A stretch of DNA of 39,886 nt from a candidate division WWE3 bacterium RIFOXYC2_FULL_42_13 (GCA_001773255.1 MEWF01000014.1:9416-49301); one strand, 5' to 3'; shown: positions 1,167-25,865, numbered from the stretch's first letter. Notes: a model not told the origin generated them from the letters alone. Translations and numbers: made by a program.

Positions 1167-4100
1167 TTACTCCAATCGCGCGCGGTCGCCTGTCGGGATT
1201 AATCTACCAATTATAACGTTTTCTTTCAATCCCAAAAGATAATCAACCTTACCAGAAGCCGCTGCGTCGGTCAACACATTGCTTGTCTGAATAAATGAGG
1301 CGGCCGACAAGAAACTATCAGTGTTCAACGAAGCTCTGGTAATACCGAGCATGGTAAGTTTTCCCGTTGCGGGAGCTCCGCCACTGGCAATAACCTCTTC
1401 GTTCACTTCCATAAATCTGGCTTTGGTACTGAGCTCGCCCTCCATAAATTCTGTATCCCCGACCTCATCGATCTTGACGTGATTAAACATTTGTTTGACG
1501 ATTATCTCGATGTGTTTATCGTTTAAAGCTACACCCTGAGAAGCGTAAACTTTCTGAATCTCTTCAATGATGTACCTTTTGGTCTCATCGACTCCCACAG
1601 TCCTGAACAGGTCTGTAAGGTCAAGGTTGCCGGCGGTTAACTTCTCGCCCTTTGCAACAATCTCACCTTCTTTGACTATTATTTCTTCGACCGGATCCAC
1701 CAAATATTCGGTGGCCTCTTCATCACGATCCGTTGGAATAACGATAATCTTTCTTTCGTCGCCGCTTTTCACAATGTTGACAACACCTGTTATATCCGAC
1801 ATTAAAGAAAGAAATTTTGGAGCTCTTGCCTCTACCAATTCCTCAACTCTGGGCAAACCCTGAGTGATGTCTTTTCCTGCGATACCTCCGGTATGGAAGG
1901 TTCTCATGGAAAGTTGGGTGCCCGGTTCGCCGATTGACTGGGCTGCCGCAACACCTACCGCTGTTCCCATGTTCACAAGTTTCCCCGTCATGAGATCTTT
2001 GCCATAGCACTTGCCGCAGATACCTCTTCTGGTCTCACAGTGCATAGGAGATCTGATAATAATGTTCTCAACTCCACCGGCTTCTATTTTGGCGACATCT
2101 TCGCGCGAAAGTAGCGTATTTCTCTTTACCAAGGTCTTCCCTTTGACCTTAACATCCGAAGCGAGGTAGCGTCCTATAACTCTGTCCGCAAAGGTCTGAA
2201 GTAAAGTTCCTTCCCCCACCTTCATTGTTCTACCGTGCTCGGTGCCGCAGTCCTCGACTCGCACTATAACATCCTGTGAAACGTCTACCAGTCTTCTTGT
2301 TAAGTAACCTGCGTCGGCTGTCTTCAGGCCTTTGTCTACCAATCCTTTTCTTGCCCCTTTAGCTCCTATGAAGTATTCCAAAGCTGATAGTCCGTATTTA
2401 TAATTGCCGAGAATAGGAACCTCAACAGTTTTACCCGAGGTATCAACGACTAAACCCTTCATACCGGCAACCTGCTTAACCTGATCTCTCGAAGCACGGG
2501 TTGATCCTGACTTGACCAAAACTTTAACCGGATTATCGTCGGCCAGCGCATCCCAAATGGCAGCATCAAGGTCGGATATTACTTTATTCCATGTATCTTC
2601 TTTAAGTCTTGAAGCCTCAGCTCTTGTTATTAAACCTCTCTTGTAGTTAGACTCGATCTCGGCTACAGTTTCTTTTCCCTTAGTTATAATTGAAGTTCTC
2701 GCCTGAGGAACCTGAATATCAGCTAAAGAAACCGACTGACCGCTGATAGTTCCGTATCTTAACCCGAGGTCTTTAAGGTCGTCGATGAATTTAACAACTA
2801 CCTCATTAGTTTCCGTTTCAAAGGTTCTCTGCAATATGGAATTGATCTGTTTCTTATCCATCGTCTGATTTACATACCCGAACCTTTCCGGAACGACTCT
2901 GTTGAATATGAGTCTGCCGAAGGTAGTCTCTACGATTTCTCCGTTGACACCTATTTTTATCTTTTGTCTAAGATTTACTTCTCCGGTAACATCGACCGCG
3001 TGCATAAGTTCGTTCTCGTCGGAGAAAACTCTTTCAAATAGAGGCAGTTTCTCATCGATGGATGTTATGTAGTAAACACCGAACAACATTATTTTTGTCG
3101 GGATTGAGATCGGAGATCCGTTCGACGGGTTCAGCAAGTTGTTGGTAGATATCATCACTGTCTTGGCTTCTTCTATAGCTTTATCACCCAACGGAACATG
3201 AACGGCCATCTGGTCCCCGTCAAAGTCGGCATTGTATCCTGAACAAACGCACAGATGAAGTTTAATGGAATTTCCTTCCACCAGCTTCGGATAGAATGCC
3301 TGAATACCCAATCTCCAAAGAGTAGGTGCGCGGTTCAAAAGCACGGGATGATCATGAACAACTTCTTCCAGGATATCCCATACTTCAGGAACGCGTGATT
3401 CCAGATAGTATTTGGCACTTTTTACATTAGGAGCATATCCTCTGCCAAGTATTTCTCTCAGAACCATGGGTTTAAACAACTCCAGAGCCATGTCCTTAGG
3501 AAGTCCGCATTCATTCAACTTCAGGTTAGGTCCGTTTATGATAACGCCTCTTCCTGAGTAATCGACTCTTTTTCCCAAAAGATTCAAACGGAATATTCCC
3601 TGTTTACCTTTTATCATGTCGGCCAGGGATCTCAGTTCTTTTTTACCTCTGGTTACCCTTGTCTTTTGCCTTTGTTTCGAAGCATCAAAAAGTGCATCTA
3701 CGGATTCCTGCAACATTCTTTTCTCGTTTCTTACTATAATTTCGGGGGCGCCCAGGTCGAGCAGCCTTCCCAAACGGTTATTTCTGTTGATCAGCCTTCT
3801 ATATAGATCATTCAGGTCGGAACTTGCAAAGCGTCCGCCCTCCAGCTGAACCATAGGTCTCAAATCCGGAGGAATAACCGGAATTATTTCCATAATCATT
3901 CTGTCGGGAGAGATGTTTGCTTTTCTGAATTGTTCGACAACTTTTAATCTTTTATTTATTCTTTGAGCCTTCTGACCCTTGGAAGTAGTGAGATCCGATC
4001 TTAGTTTCTCTGACAGATCGTTAAGATCCATACTTTTTAATATGTTCTGCAGAGCTTCCGCTCCTATTTCCAACTGAGCGAATACTTCAAGATAATTTAC

Positions 4101-21535: not shown

Positions 21536-22225
21536 ATGAATATTCTCTCATTACCTGAAGACGACAGACCCCGCGAGAAACTTTTGAGTTCGGGCCCGGG
21601 TACAATGTCGGACGCCGAACTGATTGCCATAATCCTTTCCAGCGGTGGAAAAGGACAATCTGTTCTTGAGCTATCCCAAAGTCTTATAAAGGAAGCGGAA
21701 ACGCTGACCGAACTTTTAAACTTCCCTATTCAAAAATTGATCGAACACAAAAACCTGGGCGAGGCCAAGGCGGTTAAACTTGCAGCGGTAAAAGAAATGG
21801 CAGCAAGGTACAACAACAAAAGTAAAGATATCGTCAGGATATCGGCACCCGGGGACGCGTACGACTATATCAAATCAAGCCTTTCAGGAAAAGAAACCGA
21901 ACATTTATATTTAATCACCCTTAACGCAAGAAATACCGTTATCAATAAAAATCTGATCTCGGTAGGTACCGTCAACGAAACTTTGATACACCCGAGAGAA
22001 ATAATAAAAGTAGCTGTAATGAACAACGCTGTTTCAATAATTTTGGTCCATAACCATCCGTCAGGAGAACCTTATCCGAGCTCTGAAGATATAAAAGTAA
22101 CCCAAAGGCTCGAAAGTGCCTGCAAGATTGTAGGAATCGGTTTTACCGATCACCTTATCGTGTGTGACAGCTCTTTTTCCAGCATGAGAGCACAAAATTT
22201 ATTGGGAGGGGGTGAAAAAAATTGA
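21536..22225 (+). CDS. radC: RadC-like JAB/MPN-domain protein
   Basis: 229 aa with an N-terminal HhH-like region (RPREKLLSSGPGTMSDAELIAIIL) and the C-terminal JAMM motif HNHPSGEPYPSSEDIKVT. Confidence 0.93.
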   Translation: MNILSLPEDDRPREKLLSSGPGTMSDAELIAIILSSGGKGQSVLELSQSLIKEAETLTELLNFPIQKLIEHKNLGEAKAVKLAAVKEMAARYNNKSKDIVRISAPGDAYDYIKSSLSGKETEHLYLITLNARNTVINKNLISVGTVNETLIHPREIIKVAVMNNAVSIILVHNHPSGEPYPSSEDIKVTQRLESACKIVGIGFTDHLIVCDSSFSSMRAQNLLGGGEKN

Positions 22226-22815
22226 AATTAAACAAAAAAAGTTTGCCACTTTACTTGGCAGGACTCGGTATAGTAATCAGTTTGGTTGCGGGAGTAACCT
22301 TCGCAGCTTTCACCGACAAAGCAAAGGTAATGGGCTCAACATTTTCTGTAGGAAGTGCCGACCTTAGATTTTTAGAGGACATGCCCAAAGGTACAGATCC
22401 TACGAACCTTGTCGATGAGATTCCCGGTCCGACATTCGGAAATATCGGACAAACCTGGTCAGCTGACTACCCTGTTAAACTGATCAACAACGGAACTTCG
22501 GGCATTACGATAGCATCGCGCGCATACTACGAAACCGTAAACGACCCCGCCGAATTAAGATCCGACATTAACGTAGAAATTTTCGAGTGGAACGATGCCA
22601 ACGTCAACGGTGTACTGGATCCAGGAGAAGTAGGCATGAGCCTGGGCAAGAAAACAATATTAAAATGGAAAACCGAGGGTTTGGGGGTGGGACAAATTAA
22701 CCCGGGACAGGTTCGGGCCTTAGTGCTTAGGTTCTCCACGGAAAATTTAAGCAGCACAAAACAGGGCAAATCCGCCTTGTTCGATTTTGAGTTTGAATCC
22801 GCACAGATGTATTAG
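22222..22815 (+). CDS. TasA/camelysin-family secreted protein with a SipW-type signal peptide
   Basis: 197 aa with a TTG start preceded by GGGAGGGGGTGA. The N-terminus KKSLPLYLAGLGIVISLVAGVTFAAFTDKA matches the SipW-dependent signal class (B. subtilis TasA has ...GGGTWAAFND). STFSVGSADL follows, compared with ATFASGTLDL in TasA. The C-terminus SALFDFEFESAQ compares with SIKLQFSFEATQ. Confidence 0.85.
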   Translation: MKLNKKSLPLYLAGLGIVISLVAGVTFAAFTDKAKVMGSTFSVGSADLRFLEDMPKGTDPTNLVDEIPGPTFGNIGQTWSADYPVKLINNGTSGITIASRAYYETVNDPAELRSDINVEIFEWNDANVNGVLDPGEVGMSLGKKTILKWKTEGLGVGQINPGQVRALVLRFSTENLSSTKQGKSALFDFEFESAQMY

Positions 22816-22880: not shown

Positions 22881-23285
22881 TTGGTGGGAACAGCCAGATT
22901 AGCCGGAGTTTCACTCTTTTACGTTGTCACGGGTTCCATGAAACCCGCCGCCGATAAGGGAGACGTGGTCATAACTGTACCTGTCCGCAAAATAAAAAAC
23001 GGAGATATAATCTCTTCCAAGCAAAACGGGGTTGTTACAACACACCGTGTCGTAGAAATCCGGAGATCCCCTGCCGGGGTATATTTTGAAACAAAAGGGG
23101 ACAACAACGAAAATGAAGATCCTTTTCCGGTCTCGGAAAGGGAAATATTAGGAAAGGTGGTCTTTATTGTTCCCTCCGGCCGAATATTCAACGAGAATTA
23201 TATTCCGGTTTTATATTGGCTTCTGGGGTATACATTCGGTTTATTCATTTACGAGATCCGTGTACAAAAGGCACCCCAAGTCTGA
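22881..23285 (+). CDS. sipW: SipW-type (archaeal/ER-type, S26B) signal peptidase; the true start is probably upstream of the TTG in the track
   Basis: Catalytic boxes TGSMKP, TTHRVVE and KGDNNENED, plus a C-terminal TM helix. The frame stays open back to 22797 and encodes the missing N-terminal anchor (DRYYLSILIFLL) without any ATG, GTG or TTG; see findings. Confidence 0.85.
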   Translation: MVGTARLAGVSLFYVVTGSMKPAADKGDVVITVPVRKIKNGDIISSKQNGVVTTHRVVEIRRSPAGVYFETKGDNNENEDPFPVSEREILGKVVFIVPSGRIFNENYIPVLYWLLGYTFGLFIYEIRVQKAPQV

Positions 23286-23297
23286 TATTCTTATGTT

Positions 23298-25865
23298 ATG
23301 AAGTCTCTGCCCAGACTACCTCACGAATTTATAATATGGTGGTTCCTGAAAGCTCCGCGCAGGATACTTAAAATATCTTCCCGCCTAATCACGCTTACTA
23401 ACAGCCAGATTTCTTTCACTACAAACATCAGAATATTATTTGTGCCCCTCTTCGGTGACTATACTCTGGTCGGAAGATTTATAGGGTTTTTTATAAGGGT
23501 TGTGTGGACAGTGTTAGGTCTGGTGTTTTTCTTAATTCTCTTACCTGCAAGTGCCCTTTTTCCGGTCGCGTGGTACCTAGCTCCGGCGTTCTTGTATAAA
23601 TTCGCAGGCCCTGCCCATGCTCTAGCTTATGTTTTGGCAGTTTATCTTTTGTACTTACTGGGAAACAGGGATACCCCCAGAATCAGGGTGAACAAGAACA
23701 CTAAAGAAAACTTTCAAGCCAGTTCCAGAAAAAACGTGCTGACAGCCCTGGAGAGATTGGATTCGGAGCAAAGTTCCGGTATTAAGTGGCTCTTCGGTCT
23801 CCCCCAAGTCGAAAAAATATTCAGACGCTCGGAAATAAATAAGGATCTCCTCTTCGATAAACTAAGATCAGCACCCTCCATACAAATTGCGACGCTCGGA
23901 CAGGCAGCCTTCGCAGACTCCCTAAGGTTTAAGTCCAAATATATTGAGGTGGAACATCTCCTGCTCGCCCTGCTTAATAATATACCGAAGATCGATATCA
24001 TACTTTCCTCGCTTAACTCATCCATAAAAAGTGTCGAGGGAAGTATCGAATGGGAAAACGACAAAAGAAATGAAAAAGATAAAATCTTCCTCTGGCAGGA
24101 TGACTATGAACTTATGTTTACAGGAGGATTCGGAAAGGGAATGCTGGGGAGGGTAACACCTAATCTCGACGCCGTTTCACGCGATTACACCAAAGAAATA
24201 GCTTTGGGAAGGTATAAAAAAATCCTCGGACGCGAAACCGATATTAAGACTATCGCGCAGATCCTGAGCGGCTCCAAAGAAAATGTCTTAATTATCGGCG
24301 AACCGGGAAGCGGAAAAACTACGCTGGTAAGGGGCATTGCACAGCGGATTATGGAGGGAAACGAATACAGGTCTCTCAGCAACCACAGGCTAGTCGGTTT
24401 GGACGTCGGGGGTCTCATCTCAGGCGCAACATCGCCGGGAAAAATCGCCGAAAACCTTAAAAAAGTTATGGATGAGGTAAGAGGCTCGGGAGATATTATT
24501 CTGTTCATCGATGAGATACACAACCTCGTAGCAGGCGCTGGGGATACTGACGCAGAAACATCAAAAATCTACACAATGCTCGAGCCCCATCTTGCAAATG
24601 ACAAAATAAAATTTATCGGAGCCACAACCGTTTCCAATTACAGAAAGTATATCGAACCGAATGGAGCGTTCGCCCGTCTTTTTCATTTAGTCCAAATAGA
24701 CGAGCTTCCTAAAGACACTACGATAAAAATACTTGAGGCCAAGGCGGACAAGTTGGAAAACAAGAACAACATGTTGGTAACATACCCCGCTCTGGTCAAG
24801 ACCGTGGAATTATCGGAAAAATTGATGCACGAACGTGTCCTTCCCGATAAAGCTATAGATATTTTGAACAGAACTTCCACAAAAGTAGGGGGCGGTTCCG
24901 GGATGTTAACATCTTCCGACATTGCAGCCGAGATAGCGGAAATGACCAAGATCCCCGTCGAAACCGTGACCCAAGACGAAGCCCAAAAACTGCTCTCCAT
25001 AGAGGAAACGATGAAAACGACGGTAATCGGACAGGATGAGGCTGTAAGACAGATATCCACGGCTCTCAGGCGTGCCCGTGCGGGGATACGCGATGAGAAT
25101 AAACCCATTGCCAGCTTTTTATTTGTAGGAACAACCGGTATTGGAAAAACCCAAACCGCAAAAGCACTGGCCAAACATTATTTCGGCAACGAGATCAATA
25201 TGATCAGGCTGGACATGAGCGAATACCAGCAGGTGGACAGCATCAACAGATTGTTGGGAGATGTAAATGGGAACAGTAAAGGTTTACTGACCGAAATGGT
25301 GCGCACAAAACCCTTCGCGTTAATACTTCTCGATGAGATCGAAAAAGCGCATCCGAACATTCTTCTCACCTTTTTGCAGGTTCTTGACGAAGGAAAACTT
25401 ACCGATAACTCGGGGATGGAAATTGATTTCACTAACACGATAATAATTGCTACCAGCAATGTCGGAACAAAATCCATACAACAGGTTTTTGCAGAACACG
25501 GAACTTTGGAAAAAATGAGAGAACGGGCACTGGCGGATGTCCGGGAAAAATTTGCCCCGGAATTTTTAAACAGATTCTCGGGAATAATCGTTTTCAACCC
25601 TCTTACGGAGCAGAACGTAAGAGATATAACTTTACTTATGCTCGATAAGGTCCGGGGGCTCACCGCGGAAAAAGGTATCAGTGTCAGATTTAAACAGGAA
25701 CTGGTCGACGTACTTTCAAAAAGAGGGTATTCCCCCGAATGGGGAGCCAGGCCGTTGGCGCGCCTTATTGAGGATACCGTAGAAACGTATATAGCCACCA
25801 AAATGCTTAAAAAAGAGATCAACCCGGGTGACCAAATAATGCTCGGGACAGAAGCAGTGGATTGA
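23298..25865 (+). CDS. Clp/Hsp100-type double-AAA+ ATPase (ClpA-like layout) with an N-terminal hydrophobic membrane module
   Basis: 855 aa. Residues ~55-125 form 2-3 hydrophobic helices ([57 protein letters not shown]). A single Clp_N-like repeat follows ([11 protein letters not shown]). D1 has GEPGSGKTT and ILFIDEIH. D2 has [27 protein letters not shown] and [11 protein letters not shown]. There is no long coiled-coil M-domain. Confidence 0.85.

Follow-up and report, generated by a model that had tools for sequence, protein, structure and literature searches.

What can an Hsp100 ATPase do when its chain begins with predicted membrane helices and its two rings lack the parts by which such proteins dock a protease, couple to Hsp70 and grip their substrates? 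The question is raised by one gene in a 39,886-nucleotide (nt) stretch of DNA from the candidate division WWE3 bacterium RIFOXYC2_FULL_42_13 (MEWF01000014.1:9416-49301), which was analysed whole and is called the window here. Positions 23298..25865 of its + strand hold a complete open reading frame (ORF) of 855 amino acids (aa). It encodes a predicted membrane-integral class-I Hsp100, the window protein. To our knowledge, the characterised Hsp100/Clp proteins (ClpA, ClpB, ClpC, ClpE, ClpL, ClpG/K, ClpV, Hsp104 and HSP101) are all soluble, and all grip and thread polypeptides with aromatic pore-loop residues, the pore-loop tyrosines. In the window protein, a predicted-membrane AAA+ machine of two components appears in fused form; so far it has been found only in Patescibacteria. 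These are ultra-small cells with minimal genomes that make up a large share of bacterial diversity, and roughly a third of their sampled species have the family. An Hsp100 appears here to have turned into a machine of the membrane that has a membrane partner of its own, needs neither ClpP nor coupling to DnaK, and engages its substrates in a non-canonical way.

The family departs from known Hsp100s in its predicted membrane anchoring, which is provided by a dedicated, conserved module encoded by a separate gene in most lineages. It has neither a protease-docking nor an Hsp70-coupling element. It also tolerates the loss of the gripping loop, even its deletion, with the ATPase motifs kept.

Architecture of the window protein

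The ORF starts with an ATG at 23298, 12 nt after the stop codon of a SipW-like gene, and homologues of equal length begin with the same residues. These homologues of ~855 aa share 47-89% identity with the window protein, with 99-100% of the length covered. A preliminary description of the window, made from its sequence, had placed an Hsp100 gene with a ClpA-like layout at exactly these positions. The frame is present as described, and the layout holds as far as the short junction between the rings and the missing M-domain go; a divergent Clp N-domain had been overlooked. Pfam families matched are AAA (aa 330-445, E = 2.7e-24), AAA_lid_9 (aa 473-562), AAA_2 (aa 602-761, E = 3.4e-48) and ClpB_D2-small (aa 769-848, E = 4.6e-19), and in Foldseek the predicted protomer superposes on ClpC and ClpB chains with a TM-score of ~0.8. 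NCBIfam models rank in the order ClpB, ClpA, ClpV, ClpK and ClpG, and every score lies far under the equivalog cut-off. ClpB (TIGR03346) is best, with 545.3 bits against a cut-off of 1232.1, and matches in two stretches that skip the M-domain. ClpA (TIGR02639) reaches 485 bits against 993.15 in one colinear stretch (aa 290-848), and ClpV/TssH (TIGR03345) reaches 452.9 bits against 884.95. Because all of these scores fall so far short, the product is, on sequence grounds, a class-I Hsp100 outside all named subfamilies.

The chain opens with a module that is predicted to enter the membrane. Its Kyte-Doolittle profile (19-residue window) peaks at 2.6 in aa 57-98 and at 1.64 in aa 103-121, and the rest of the protein is not hydrophobic. 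The hydrophobic block is present in 45/45 relatives (median 66 aa), preceded by a K/R-rich stretch in nearly all of them and followed by one in most. AlphaFold2, run on the alignment of these 45 sequences (predicted local distance difference test, pLDDT, 88), gives helices at aa 8-38, 40-45, 57-103 and 105-122, with a loop that bears PLFGDY ahead of the helix at aa 57-103. The conserved, K/R-rich segment at aa 1-56 (23298..23465) would lie in the cytoplasm or at the membrane interface; its aa 8-38 form a long amphipathic helix with a WW motif. The first hydrophobic helix, aa 57-103 (23466..23606), would comprise the first transmembrane (TM) helix, TM1 (core ~aa 61-84, Kyte-Doolittle 2.61), and an outer-face extension with W92. 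The second predicted TM helix, aa 105-122 (23610..23663), would return the chain to the cytoplasm, where a basic stretch follows. Given a cytoplasmic ATPase, the block agrees with a pair of TM helices whose two ends both lie on the cytoplasmic side. The membrane module of the preliminary description is thus upheld by hydropathy, by conservation, by charge flanks and by the predicted helices, and its word "polytopic" is best read as two such helices with both ends inside.

The module carries the motif LFxPLFGDYTxxGRxIGFxxR at aa 47-67. P50, G59, R60, R67 and W92 are invariant in the 45 sequences, and the predicted topology places them where the chain approaches TM1 from the cytoplasm and at the outer interface. 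Pfam and NCBIfam yielded no family for the module, whether the query was the N-terminal 290 aa or five module proteins that stand alone, and Foldseek against the PDB returned no structural match for it, the N-domain alone being matched.

This N-domain is predicted as an all-helical domain at aa 136-260 (23703..24077). The Pfam Clp_N match is weak (aa 209-227, E = 5.8e-4, 20.4 bits against a cut-off of 20.7). In Foldseek, the top 49 of the 50 listed matches are Hsp100 N-domains or Hsp100-family chains, aligned over ~105-160 columns. They include HSP101, ClpC1, Hsp104, ClpA and ClpB, with a probability of ~1 and a TM-score on the target of 0.5-0.63. The sequence match is weak but the modelled fold is clearly that of a Clp N-domain. 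A family-specific, glycine-rich linker then leads to the first ring at aa 263-291 (24084..24170). It has low pLDDT and the motif WQ[DE]DY...GGxGKGMxGRVTPxLD, in which W266, G277, G281, T287 and L290 are invariant.

Motifs of the two rings, D1 and D2, were checked by alignment with ClpA and ClpB of E. coli K-12 and with two Hsp100 paralogs of the same genome; PDB alignments with T. thermophilus ClpB and S. aureus ClpC were read as well. The D1 AAA+ module with its lid spans aa 300-560 (24195..24977). Walker A (GEPGSGKT, aa 334-341, nt 24297-24320), Walker B (aa 400-408, nt 24495-24521, with ILFIDEIH) and sensor-1 are all intact. D2 spans aa 565-768 (24990..25601) and is 44.6% identical to E. 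coli ClpB and 36.3% to ClpA. It has an intact Walker A (GTTGIGKT, aa 611-618, nt 25128-25151), Walker B (aa 675-685, nt 25320-25352), sensor-1 (TSN) and arginine finger (FLNRF, nt 25563-25577). The D2-small domain follows at aa 769-848 (25602..25841), with sensor-2 GARPL intact (aa 816-820, nt 25743-25757).

Between the rings, the junction at aa 515-557 (24840..24968) is short. The ~125-residue M-domain of ClpB, its DnaK-coupling element, is missing in the alignments with E. coli ClpA and ClpB, and the junction has the length of that in ClpA. The full-length AlphaFold model (pLDDT 81) has only short helices here and no long coiled coil. The short M-domain of ClpC, a coiled coil regulated by MecA/McsB, is missing too; the ClpC-like paralog on contig C10 of the same genome has an insertion at this place. 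Alignments, the NCBIfam matches and the model therefore agree with the preliminary description that no ClpB- or ClpC-type M-domain is present.

The same holds for its claim that the ClpP-binding tripeptide is missing. The D2 stretch at aa 722-739 (nt 25461-25514) contains no [ILV]-G-[FL] and aligns without gaps to ClpB, which has no such loop. The loop position reads QQVFAEHGT in the window protein, SIGLI in E. coli ClpA, and EIGF and DIGF in the two paralogs. No conserved tripeptide was found in 66 close relatives and none in 51 other family members. One split member (L061) reads RAGL at the loop position; we rejected it as a docking motif and attribute it to chance, as a close relative (L063) reads RAGI and the loop is of ClpB length.

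Fused and split forms of the family

Members of the family combine the module (PL[FY]GDY..GR..GF..R and W92) with an Hsp100 that has no M-domain and no ClpP loop; the two are joined in one chain, or the module gene immediately precedes the Hsp100 gene. We built a profile, A3, from the membrane module alone, with the window protein as alignment reference, and searched 401 evenly sampled Patescibacteria genomes. A3 matched in 126 of them, with one copy each. The module is fused in 38 (frames of 684-920 aa) and stands alone in 88 (frames of 104-186 aa). In all 32 of the split loci that were sampled, a module gene of 103-154 aa immediately precedes an Hsp100 gene of ~810-960 aa, with both on one strand. 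The gap within these pairs ranges from -103 to +177 nt, and many genes overlap by 1-4 nt or lie 0-3 nt apart. The preliminary description had treated the window gene by itself, and this separate module gene of most other lineages had escaped it.

The partner Hsp100s of the split form bear TM helices of their own, yet the small gene is always kept. The module is therefore likely to be more than an anchor. The N-termini of three Hsp100s (L062, L084 and L091) also show a CxxC-(9-12 residues)-CxxC motif, resembling a zinc ribbon, ahead of their own TM helices.

Across 1.84 billion representative proteins, the module occurs in 601 clusters and is always N-terminal. Full-length proteins are of ~105-150 aa or ~780-875 aa, and the remainder are fragments at contig ends. 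Those members that have a name belong to WWE3, Kazan, Buchananbacteria, Minisyncoccia and Parcubacteria. When the module profile was used in a word-indexed search for homologues, just 17 short proteins came back, each of them unnamed or labelled "hypothetical". A motif scan for the fused type in 185,579 species genomes found it only in Patescibacteria, in Saccharibacteria, in entries classified no further than "bacterium" and in one contig that is probably mis-binned. This contig (L048; JBAZEV010000237.1, 2551 bases) is labelled "Candidatus Bathyarchaeia archaeon"; it has the patescibacterial order tasA-sipW-Hsp100 and is closely like four other loci (L047 and L049-L051).

In a tree of D2 sequences, 30 fused and 31 split members fall on one branch (support 100/96) against E. 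coli ClpA and ClpB and the two same-genome paralogs. The tree was also used to ask whether fused forms arose several times; its backbone is unresolved and compatible with a single fusion.

Public annotation calls family members "hypothetical" or "ATP-dependent Clp protease ATP-binding subunit" (ClpC or ClpA). The latter label is misleading and inflates the ClpP-protease capacity inferred for Patescibacteria. We found no description of a membrane-anchored Hsp100 or of the module in the literature, an absence that is no proof of being unpublished.

Pore loops and the mode of action

Both rings had been described as catalytically intact. Their Walker A and Walker B pairs are, but each pore loop has lost its tyrosine, and of its two arginine fingers D1 keeps one. 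In place of the G[TA]KYRG of ClpA and ClpB, the pore loop of D1 reads GATSPG (nt 24423-24440). That of D2 reads GDVNG-NSKG (nt 25257-25283) against GAPPGYVG[FY], and is ~5 residues shorter and non-aromatic. The arginine-finger pair of D1 is cut from RRF to RLF (FARLFH, nt 24669-24686). Among the 66 close relatives, the D1 tyrosine position is aromatic in none and one D2 position is aromatic in three. Their D2 loop follows the pattern G-[TSA]-P-D-G-[SK]-[TS]-[KS]-G with invariant glycines, so the pore loops appear to have been remodelled under constraint and not to be decaying. Walker A/B, sensor-1, arginine finger and sensor-2 of D2 are invariant in these 66 relatives and are retained family-wide.

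We extended the survey of the D2 loop to 20 further fused lineages, in which M-domain, ClpP loop and D1 tyrosine are absent as well. The D1 tyrosine is in fact missing from every family member examined. The D2 loop is near-canonical in some lineages (GPPPGYPGYEEGG, GDSAGYVGY), has its tyrosine replaced by Q, H or M in others (GQVGY, GHLGF, GMPGY), is shortened in a further group that includes the window protein, and has suffered a 12-residue deletion in seven lineages. Walker A/B, arginine finger and sensor-2 of D2 stay intact throughout this series. D1 is often degenerate in the family, with FINQ or FIDA at Walker B and no arginine finger, and many split-form Hsp100s have a single Walker A. 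We had considered aromatic-free D2 loops as a possible universal of the family, which is ruled out by those of the 20 added lineages that keep GY[VP]GY.

Mutation of the pore-loop tyrosine in ClpB, ClpA, ClpX and Hsp104 abolishes or greatly cuts threading. The family offers a natural experiment in what an Hsp100 ring can do without pore-loop aromatics, and its conserved function appears not to need the gripping loop. The preliminary description had predicted an unfoldase. This part of it is doubtful, because the D2 pore loop erodes or vanishes across the family with the ATPase motifs persisting.

One component of the machine is the small, conserved membrane module, made up of the predicted amphipathic helix, the PLFGDY..GR..GF..R loop and the hydrophobic hairpin. 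The other is the double-ring ATPase of Hsp100 type; the chain of the window protein runs from the module through the Clp N-domain and D1 to D2. We propose the following arrangement for them. The ATPase would form a hexamer, as other Hsp100s do. Because the TM hairpin is N-terminal to the N-domain, the N-domain/D1 face, through which substrates enter other Hsp100s, would be held at the cytoplasmic side of the membrane. The machine would therefore work at the membrane, where it would act on its own module or on clients that are embedded there or lie close by. It would operate without ClpP and without DnaK coupling, with D2 as the conserved motor. Since the gripping tyrosines are missing here and dispensable across the family, the most likely activity would be that of a short-stroke remodeller or segregase, which uses ATP to pry apart, release or gate membrane-associated proteins. 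We favour such short-stroke remodelling or gating over processive unfolding, with low confidence in the detail. As a whole, a membrane-tethered remodeller or segregase that is independent of ClpP and DnaK, and is unlikely to be a processive threading unfoldase, is our preferred though tentative account, which we put somewhat short of an even chance.

Several points weigh against this account. Membrane insertion and topology are predictions, read only from hydropathy, charge bias and an AlphaFold model of the monomer. Two loci retain tyrosines in the D2 pore loop (GYPGY in L104, GYVGY in L116). Since D2 loops are near-canonical in some members, the ancestor of the family probably threaded polypeptides, an ability that may in part persist. 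In the window protein, the polar D2 loop, which is conserved, could still move a polypeptide, and the retained Clp N-domain fits an ordinary handling of protein substrates. In the split and fused loci that were compared, no neighbour save the module itself is conserved across the family.

Much of this would suit a processive, protease-independent extractase or unfoldase, a hexamer that threads membrane or membrane-proximal proteins out of the bilayer and, by way of D1 and D2, into the cytoplasm, in a topology like that of FtsH without its protease or of Msp1. The N-terminal TM anchor would put the D1 entry face at the membrane, the Clp N-domain is retained, and Walker A/B are intact in both rings, as are the D2 arginine finger and sensor motifs. 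Some family members still have GY[VP]GY in D2, and the D2 loop in the subfamily of the window protein is conserved rather than decaying. The pore loops speak against it: neither has an aromatic residue here (0/66 relatives at D1, 3/66 at one D2 position), the D1 tyrosine is missing throughout, the D2 loop is wholly deleted in several lineages that keep their ATPase motifs, and the tyrosine mutants named above are impaired in just this activity. We regard an extractase as unlikely, if worth keeping in mind.

The likeness to FtsH is one of working logic only. N-terminal TM helices put the AAA+ entry face on the cytoplasmic side of the membrane in both. FtsH, however, is a single ring of the classic AAA clade with an aromatic pore loop and a fused M41 peptidase, whereas the window protein has a double Hsp100 ring and no protease; a Pfam scan of its ORF found no M41 domain. 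From published knowledge, Msp1/ATAD1 and Bcs1 share the N-terminal TM anchor and a protease-independent action on membrane proteins. They are single-ring members of unrelated AAA clades with no homology to the window protein beyond the AAA+ core. Msp1 relies on aromatic pore loops. Bcs1 has no canonical gripping loops and moves a folded client.

A logic like that of Bcs1 underlies a further alternative, in which a hexamer contributes twelve TM helices and six amphipathic ones to a collar or pore; on the same axis would lie the AAA+ channel, widened and free of aromatics. A folded protein or a non-protein polymer would be driven through the membrane by such a machine, or have its path gated. 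The module is indeed highly conserved (invariant P50, G59, R60, R67 and W92), it is more than an anchor in that split Hsp100s with TM helices of their own still always keep the small partner gene, and the pore loops are short, polar or basic, or deleted. Patescibacteria in general depend on exchange with their hosts. On the other side, no conserved secretion or uptake genes were found among the neighbours, and two TM helices per subunit are a small share for a channel. The conduit is improbable on balance. Its fullest version, a new bacterial membrane machine in which D2 hydrolysis opens, closes or drives a conduit by which folded proteins or a non-protein polymer cross the membrane or leave it, with the hexameric TM collar set coaxially on a channel devoid of gripping loops, is a little more improbable still.

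With ClpB/Hsp104, a disaggregase, the window protein shares the two AAA+ rings, the Clp N-domain fold, the D2-small domain and the lack of a ClpP loop. Its D2 is closest to that of ClpB, whose model also tops the NCBIfam list. Unlike ClpB/Hsp104, it has no M-domain, no pore-loop tyrosines and only one D1 arginine finger of the pair, its D2 loop is ~5 residues shorter, and it begins with a membrane module. With ClpA it shares the short D1-D2 junction and the colinear model match (aa 290-848). It differs from ClpA in lacking the IGL loop and the pore-loop tyrosines, in its low D2 identity (36.3%) and in its predicted membrane anchor. The same-genome paralogs of ClpC/ClpE type have the superfamily, N-domain, D1 and D2 in common with it, but they are soluble by sequence, have an M-domain, IGF and GAPPGYVGY, and lie across the 100/96 branch in the D2 tree.

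Plasmodium HSP101, part of PTEX, is a ClpB-type Hsp100 that works at a membrane pore without a protease, and its N-domain is the top Foldseek match to aa 136-260. It is itself soluble, docks on EXP2/PTEX150 with its D2 face, and keeps the M-domain and the pore-loop tyrosines. In the window protein it is the opposite, N-terminal/D1 face that is predicted to lie at the membrane. Torsin with its partners LAP1/LULL1 offers another parallel. Torsin is related to the D2 of ClpB, is membrane-associated, has no aromatic pore loops and needs a small membrane partner, which resembles the obligatory module of the present family. It differs in being a single-ring, eukaryotic protein of the endoplasmic reticulum lumen whose partner donates an arginine finger. 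One split-form member gave a weak Pfam Torsin match. It is pure speculation that R60 and R67 of the module act like the arginine finger of the Torsin partner; if so, they might work in trans on degenerate D1 sites, as LAP1 does for Torsin.

The loss of pore loops could also mark a largely inactive scaffold, an Hsp100-derived pseudo-enzyme comparable to plant SMAX1/D53, which would serve a structural purpose at the membrane and not act as a motor. The degeneration of D1 in many members, with FINQ/FIDA and no arginine finger, and the single Walker A of many split forms point the same way. Both Walker A and Walker B pairs are nevertheless intact in the window protein, and D2 Walker A/B, sensor-1, arginine finger and sensor-2 are invariant in 66 relatives and kept family-wide, which makes a scaffold highly improbable. 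A gene of ~2.6 kb that is kept in minimal genomes is unlikely to be idle and points to an unrecognised membrane function.

ClpP, other chaperones and the genome neighbourhood

The source genome is 780 kb in an assembly that is 87% complete. It has ClpP (contig C23), next to the trigger factor gene, as well as FtsH (contig C11) and DnaK; ClpX was not found in this 87% complete assembly. The two other Hsp100 paralogs (contigs C10 and C3) both retain the IGF loop and GYVGY. Since FtsH, DnaK, ClpP and two ClpP-type Hsp100s are already present, the window protein would provide an additional function and not a replacement.

In the sample of 401 genomes, ClpP was found in 349. Seventeen module-positive genomes, many of which are 92-100% complete, gave no ClpP match, 15 of them with the fused form. 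These carriers include all sampled genomes of the families f62 (5/5) and f98 (2/2), and genomes that are 97-100% complete. Presence of the module and presence of ClpP give an odds ratio of 1.07 (p = 0.87, a descriptive value only, as related genomes are not independent). With 17 such carriers and no association, the family persists where no ClpP is found.

An ordinary ClpP-dependent Clp ATPase that docks ClpP by some other contact is what the public annotations imply. The genome does contain ClpP, and ClpX was not seen in its 87% complete assembly. Against this stand the lack of [ILV]-G-[FL] and the gap-free alignment to loop-less ClpB, the IGF of the two other Hsp100s, scores far under the NCBIfam cut-offs for ClpA and ClpB, and the 17 genomes that have the family without ClpP, with no association between the two. 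We give the ClpP-dependent alternative hardly any credence. The protease independence that the preliminary description had predicted is, by contrast, well supported by the comparisons of sequences and genomes: the missing tripeptide, the IGF kept by the paralogs, the ClpP-less carriers and the odds ratio all agree with it.

The paralog on contig C10 (L004, G000 contig C10:9676-13182) is encoded by ORF 1192-3501 (-), has 769 aa and adjoins radA, as clpC does in Firmicutes. The motifs of its D1 have degenerated, with GEPGVGKR at Walker A, ILFIKNF at Walker B and the arginine finger gone; its D2 is canonical and has GYVGY and an IGF ClpP loop. The third Hsp100 (L003, G000 contig C3:5569-9093; ORFs 323-1087 and 1102-2355, +) resembles ClpC/ClpE. 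It starts with a CxxC...CxxC zinc ribbon, has a coiled coil of short length and keeps both GYVGY and IGF. Its gene appears split because part of D1 has no readable bases. A 240-aa frame at G000 contig C5:7903-8412 (-) (L002) has a weak match to the CLP_protease family (E = 4e-11, 41.8 bits), and its product may not be a second ClpP but a serine protease that is ClpP-like or of the SppA/NfeD type.

Directly upstream of the Hsp100 gene in the window lie a TasA/camelysin-like gene (22222-22815, +) and the SipW-type signal peptidase gene (22881-23285, +). The SipW-like ORF has sub-threshold Pfam matches only, to Peptidase_S24 (23.1 bits against a cut-off of 23.3) and to S26, and looks N-terminally short from its TTG start. 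The order rpsI, xre(-), radC, tasA-like, sipW, Hsp100, prfB, ftsK(-) recurs in fused-type loci. Among 48 such loci from the species-genome collection, many on short contigs, 36 have an upstream tasA-like gene, 23 have sipW and 28 have prfB.

The window protein could accordingly be a dedicated helper of the adjacent TasA-like fibre and SipW system, co-transcribed with sipW and serving, for example, in signal-peptide clearing or subunit hand-over. The 12-nt gap between sipW and the Hsp100 start and the recurrence of the gene order (36/48 and 23/48) would suit this. The distribution of the genes does not. A TasA-like protein occurs in 24/401 genomes, against 126 with the module, and these 24 belong to families f1-f3 of the same class apart from four weak matches. 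The distance between tasA and the Hsp100 gene is large in f3 genomes and in two further genomes (G181 and G300), or the two genes are on different contigs, and one genome (G030) has tasA without a module match. The adjacency is therefore synteny of the WWE3-class lineage and not a trait of the Hsp100 family, and a helper role is very unlikely. We also rejected a general link between TasA/SipW and the family, as TasA-like proteins are confined to three families and the neighbours of split loci vary, for example rsmH/ftsL/ftsW or nusB/rnc.

At one locus (L054:5989-9627, +), the Hsp100 and the downstream prfB share a single open frame of 1212 aa, which a true fusion, the loss of a stop codon or faulty assembly could each explain. 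At two split loci (L063, G347:C5:213000-219500; L064, G223:C2:18500-24500), the module-Hsp100 pair comes after an ORF that resembles rsmH in its C-terminal part and after a small gene similar to ftsL, and in L063 a multi-TM, ftsW-like gene lies two ORFs beyond the pair. Judged by eye, as were all of these neighbours, the pair sits inside a division and cell-wall cluster at both loci.

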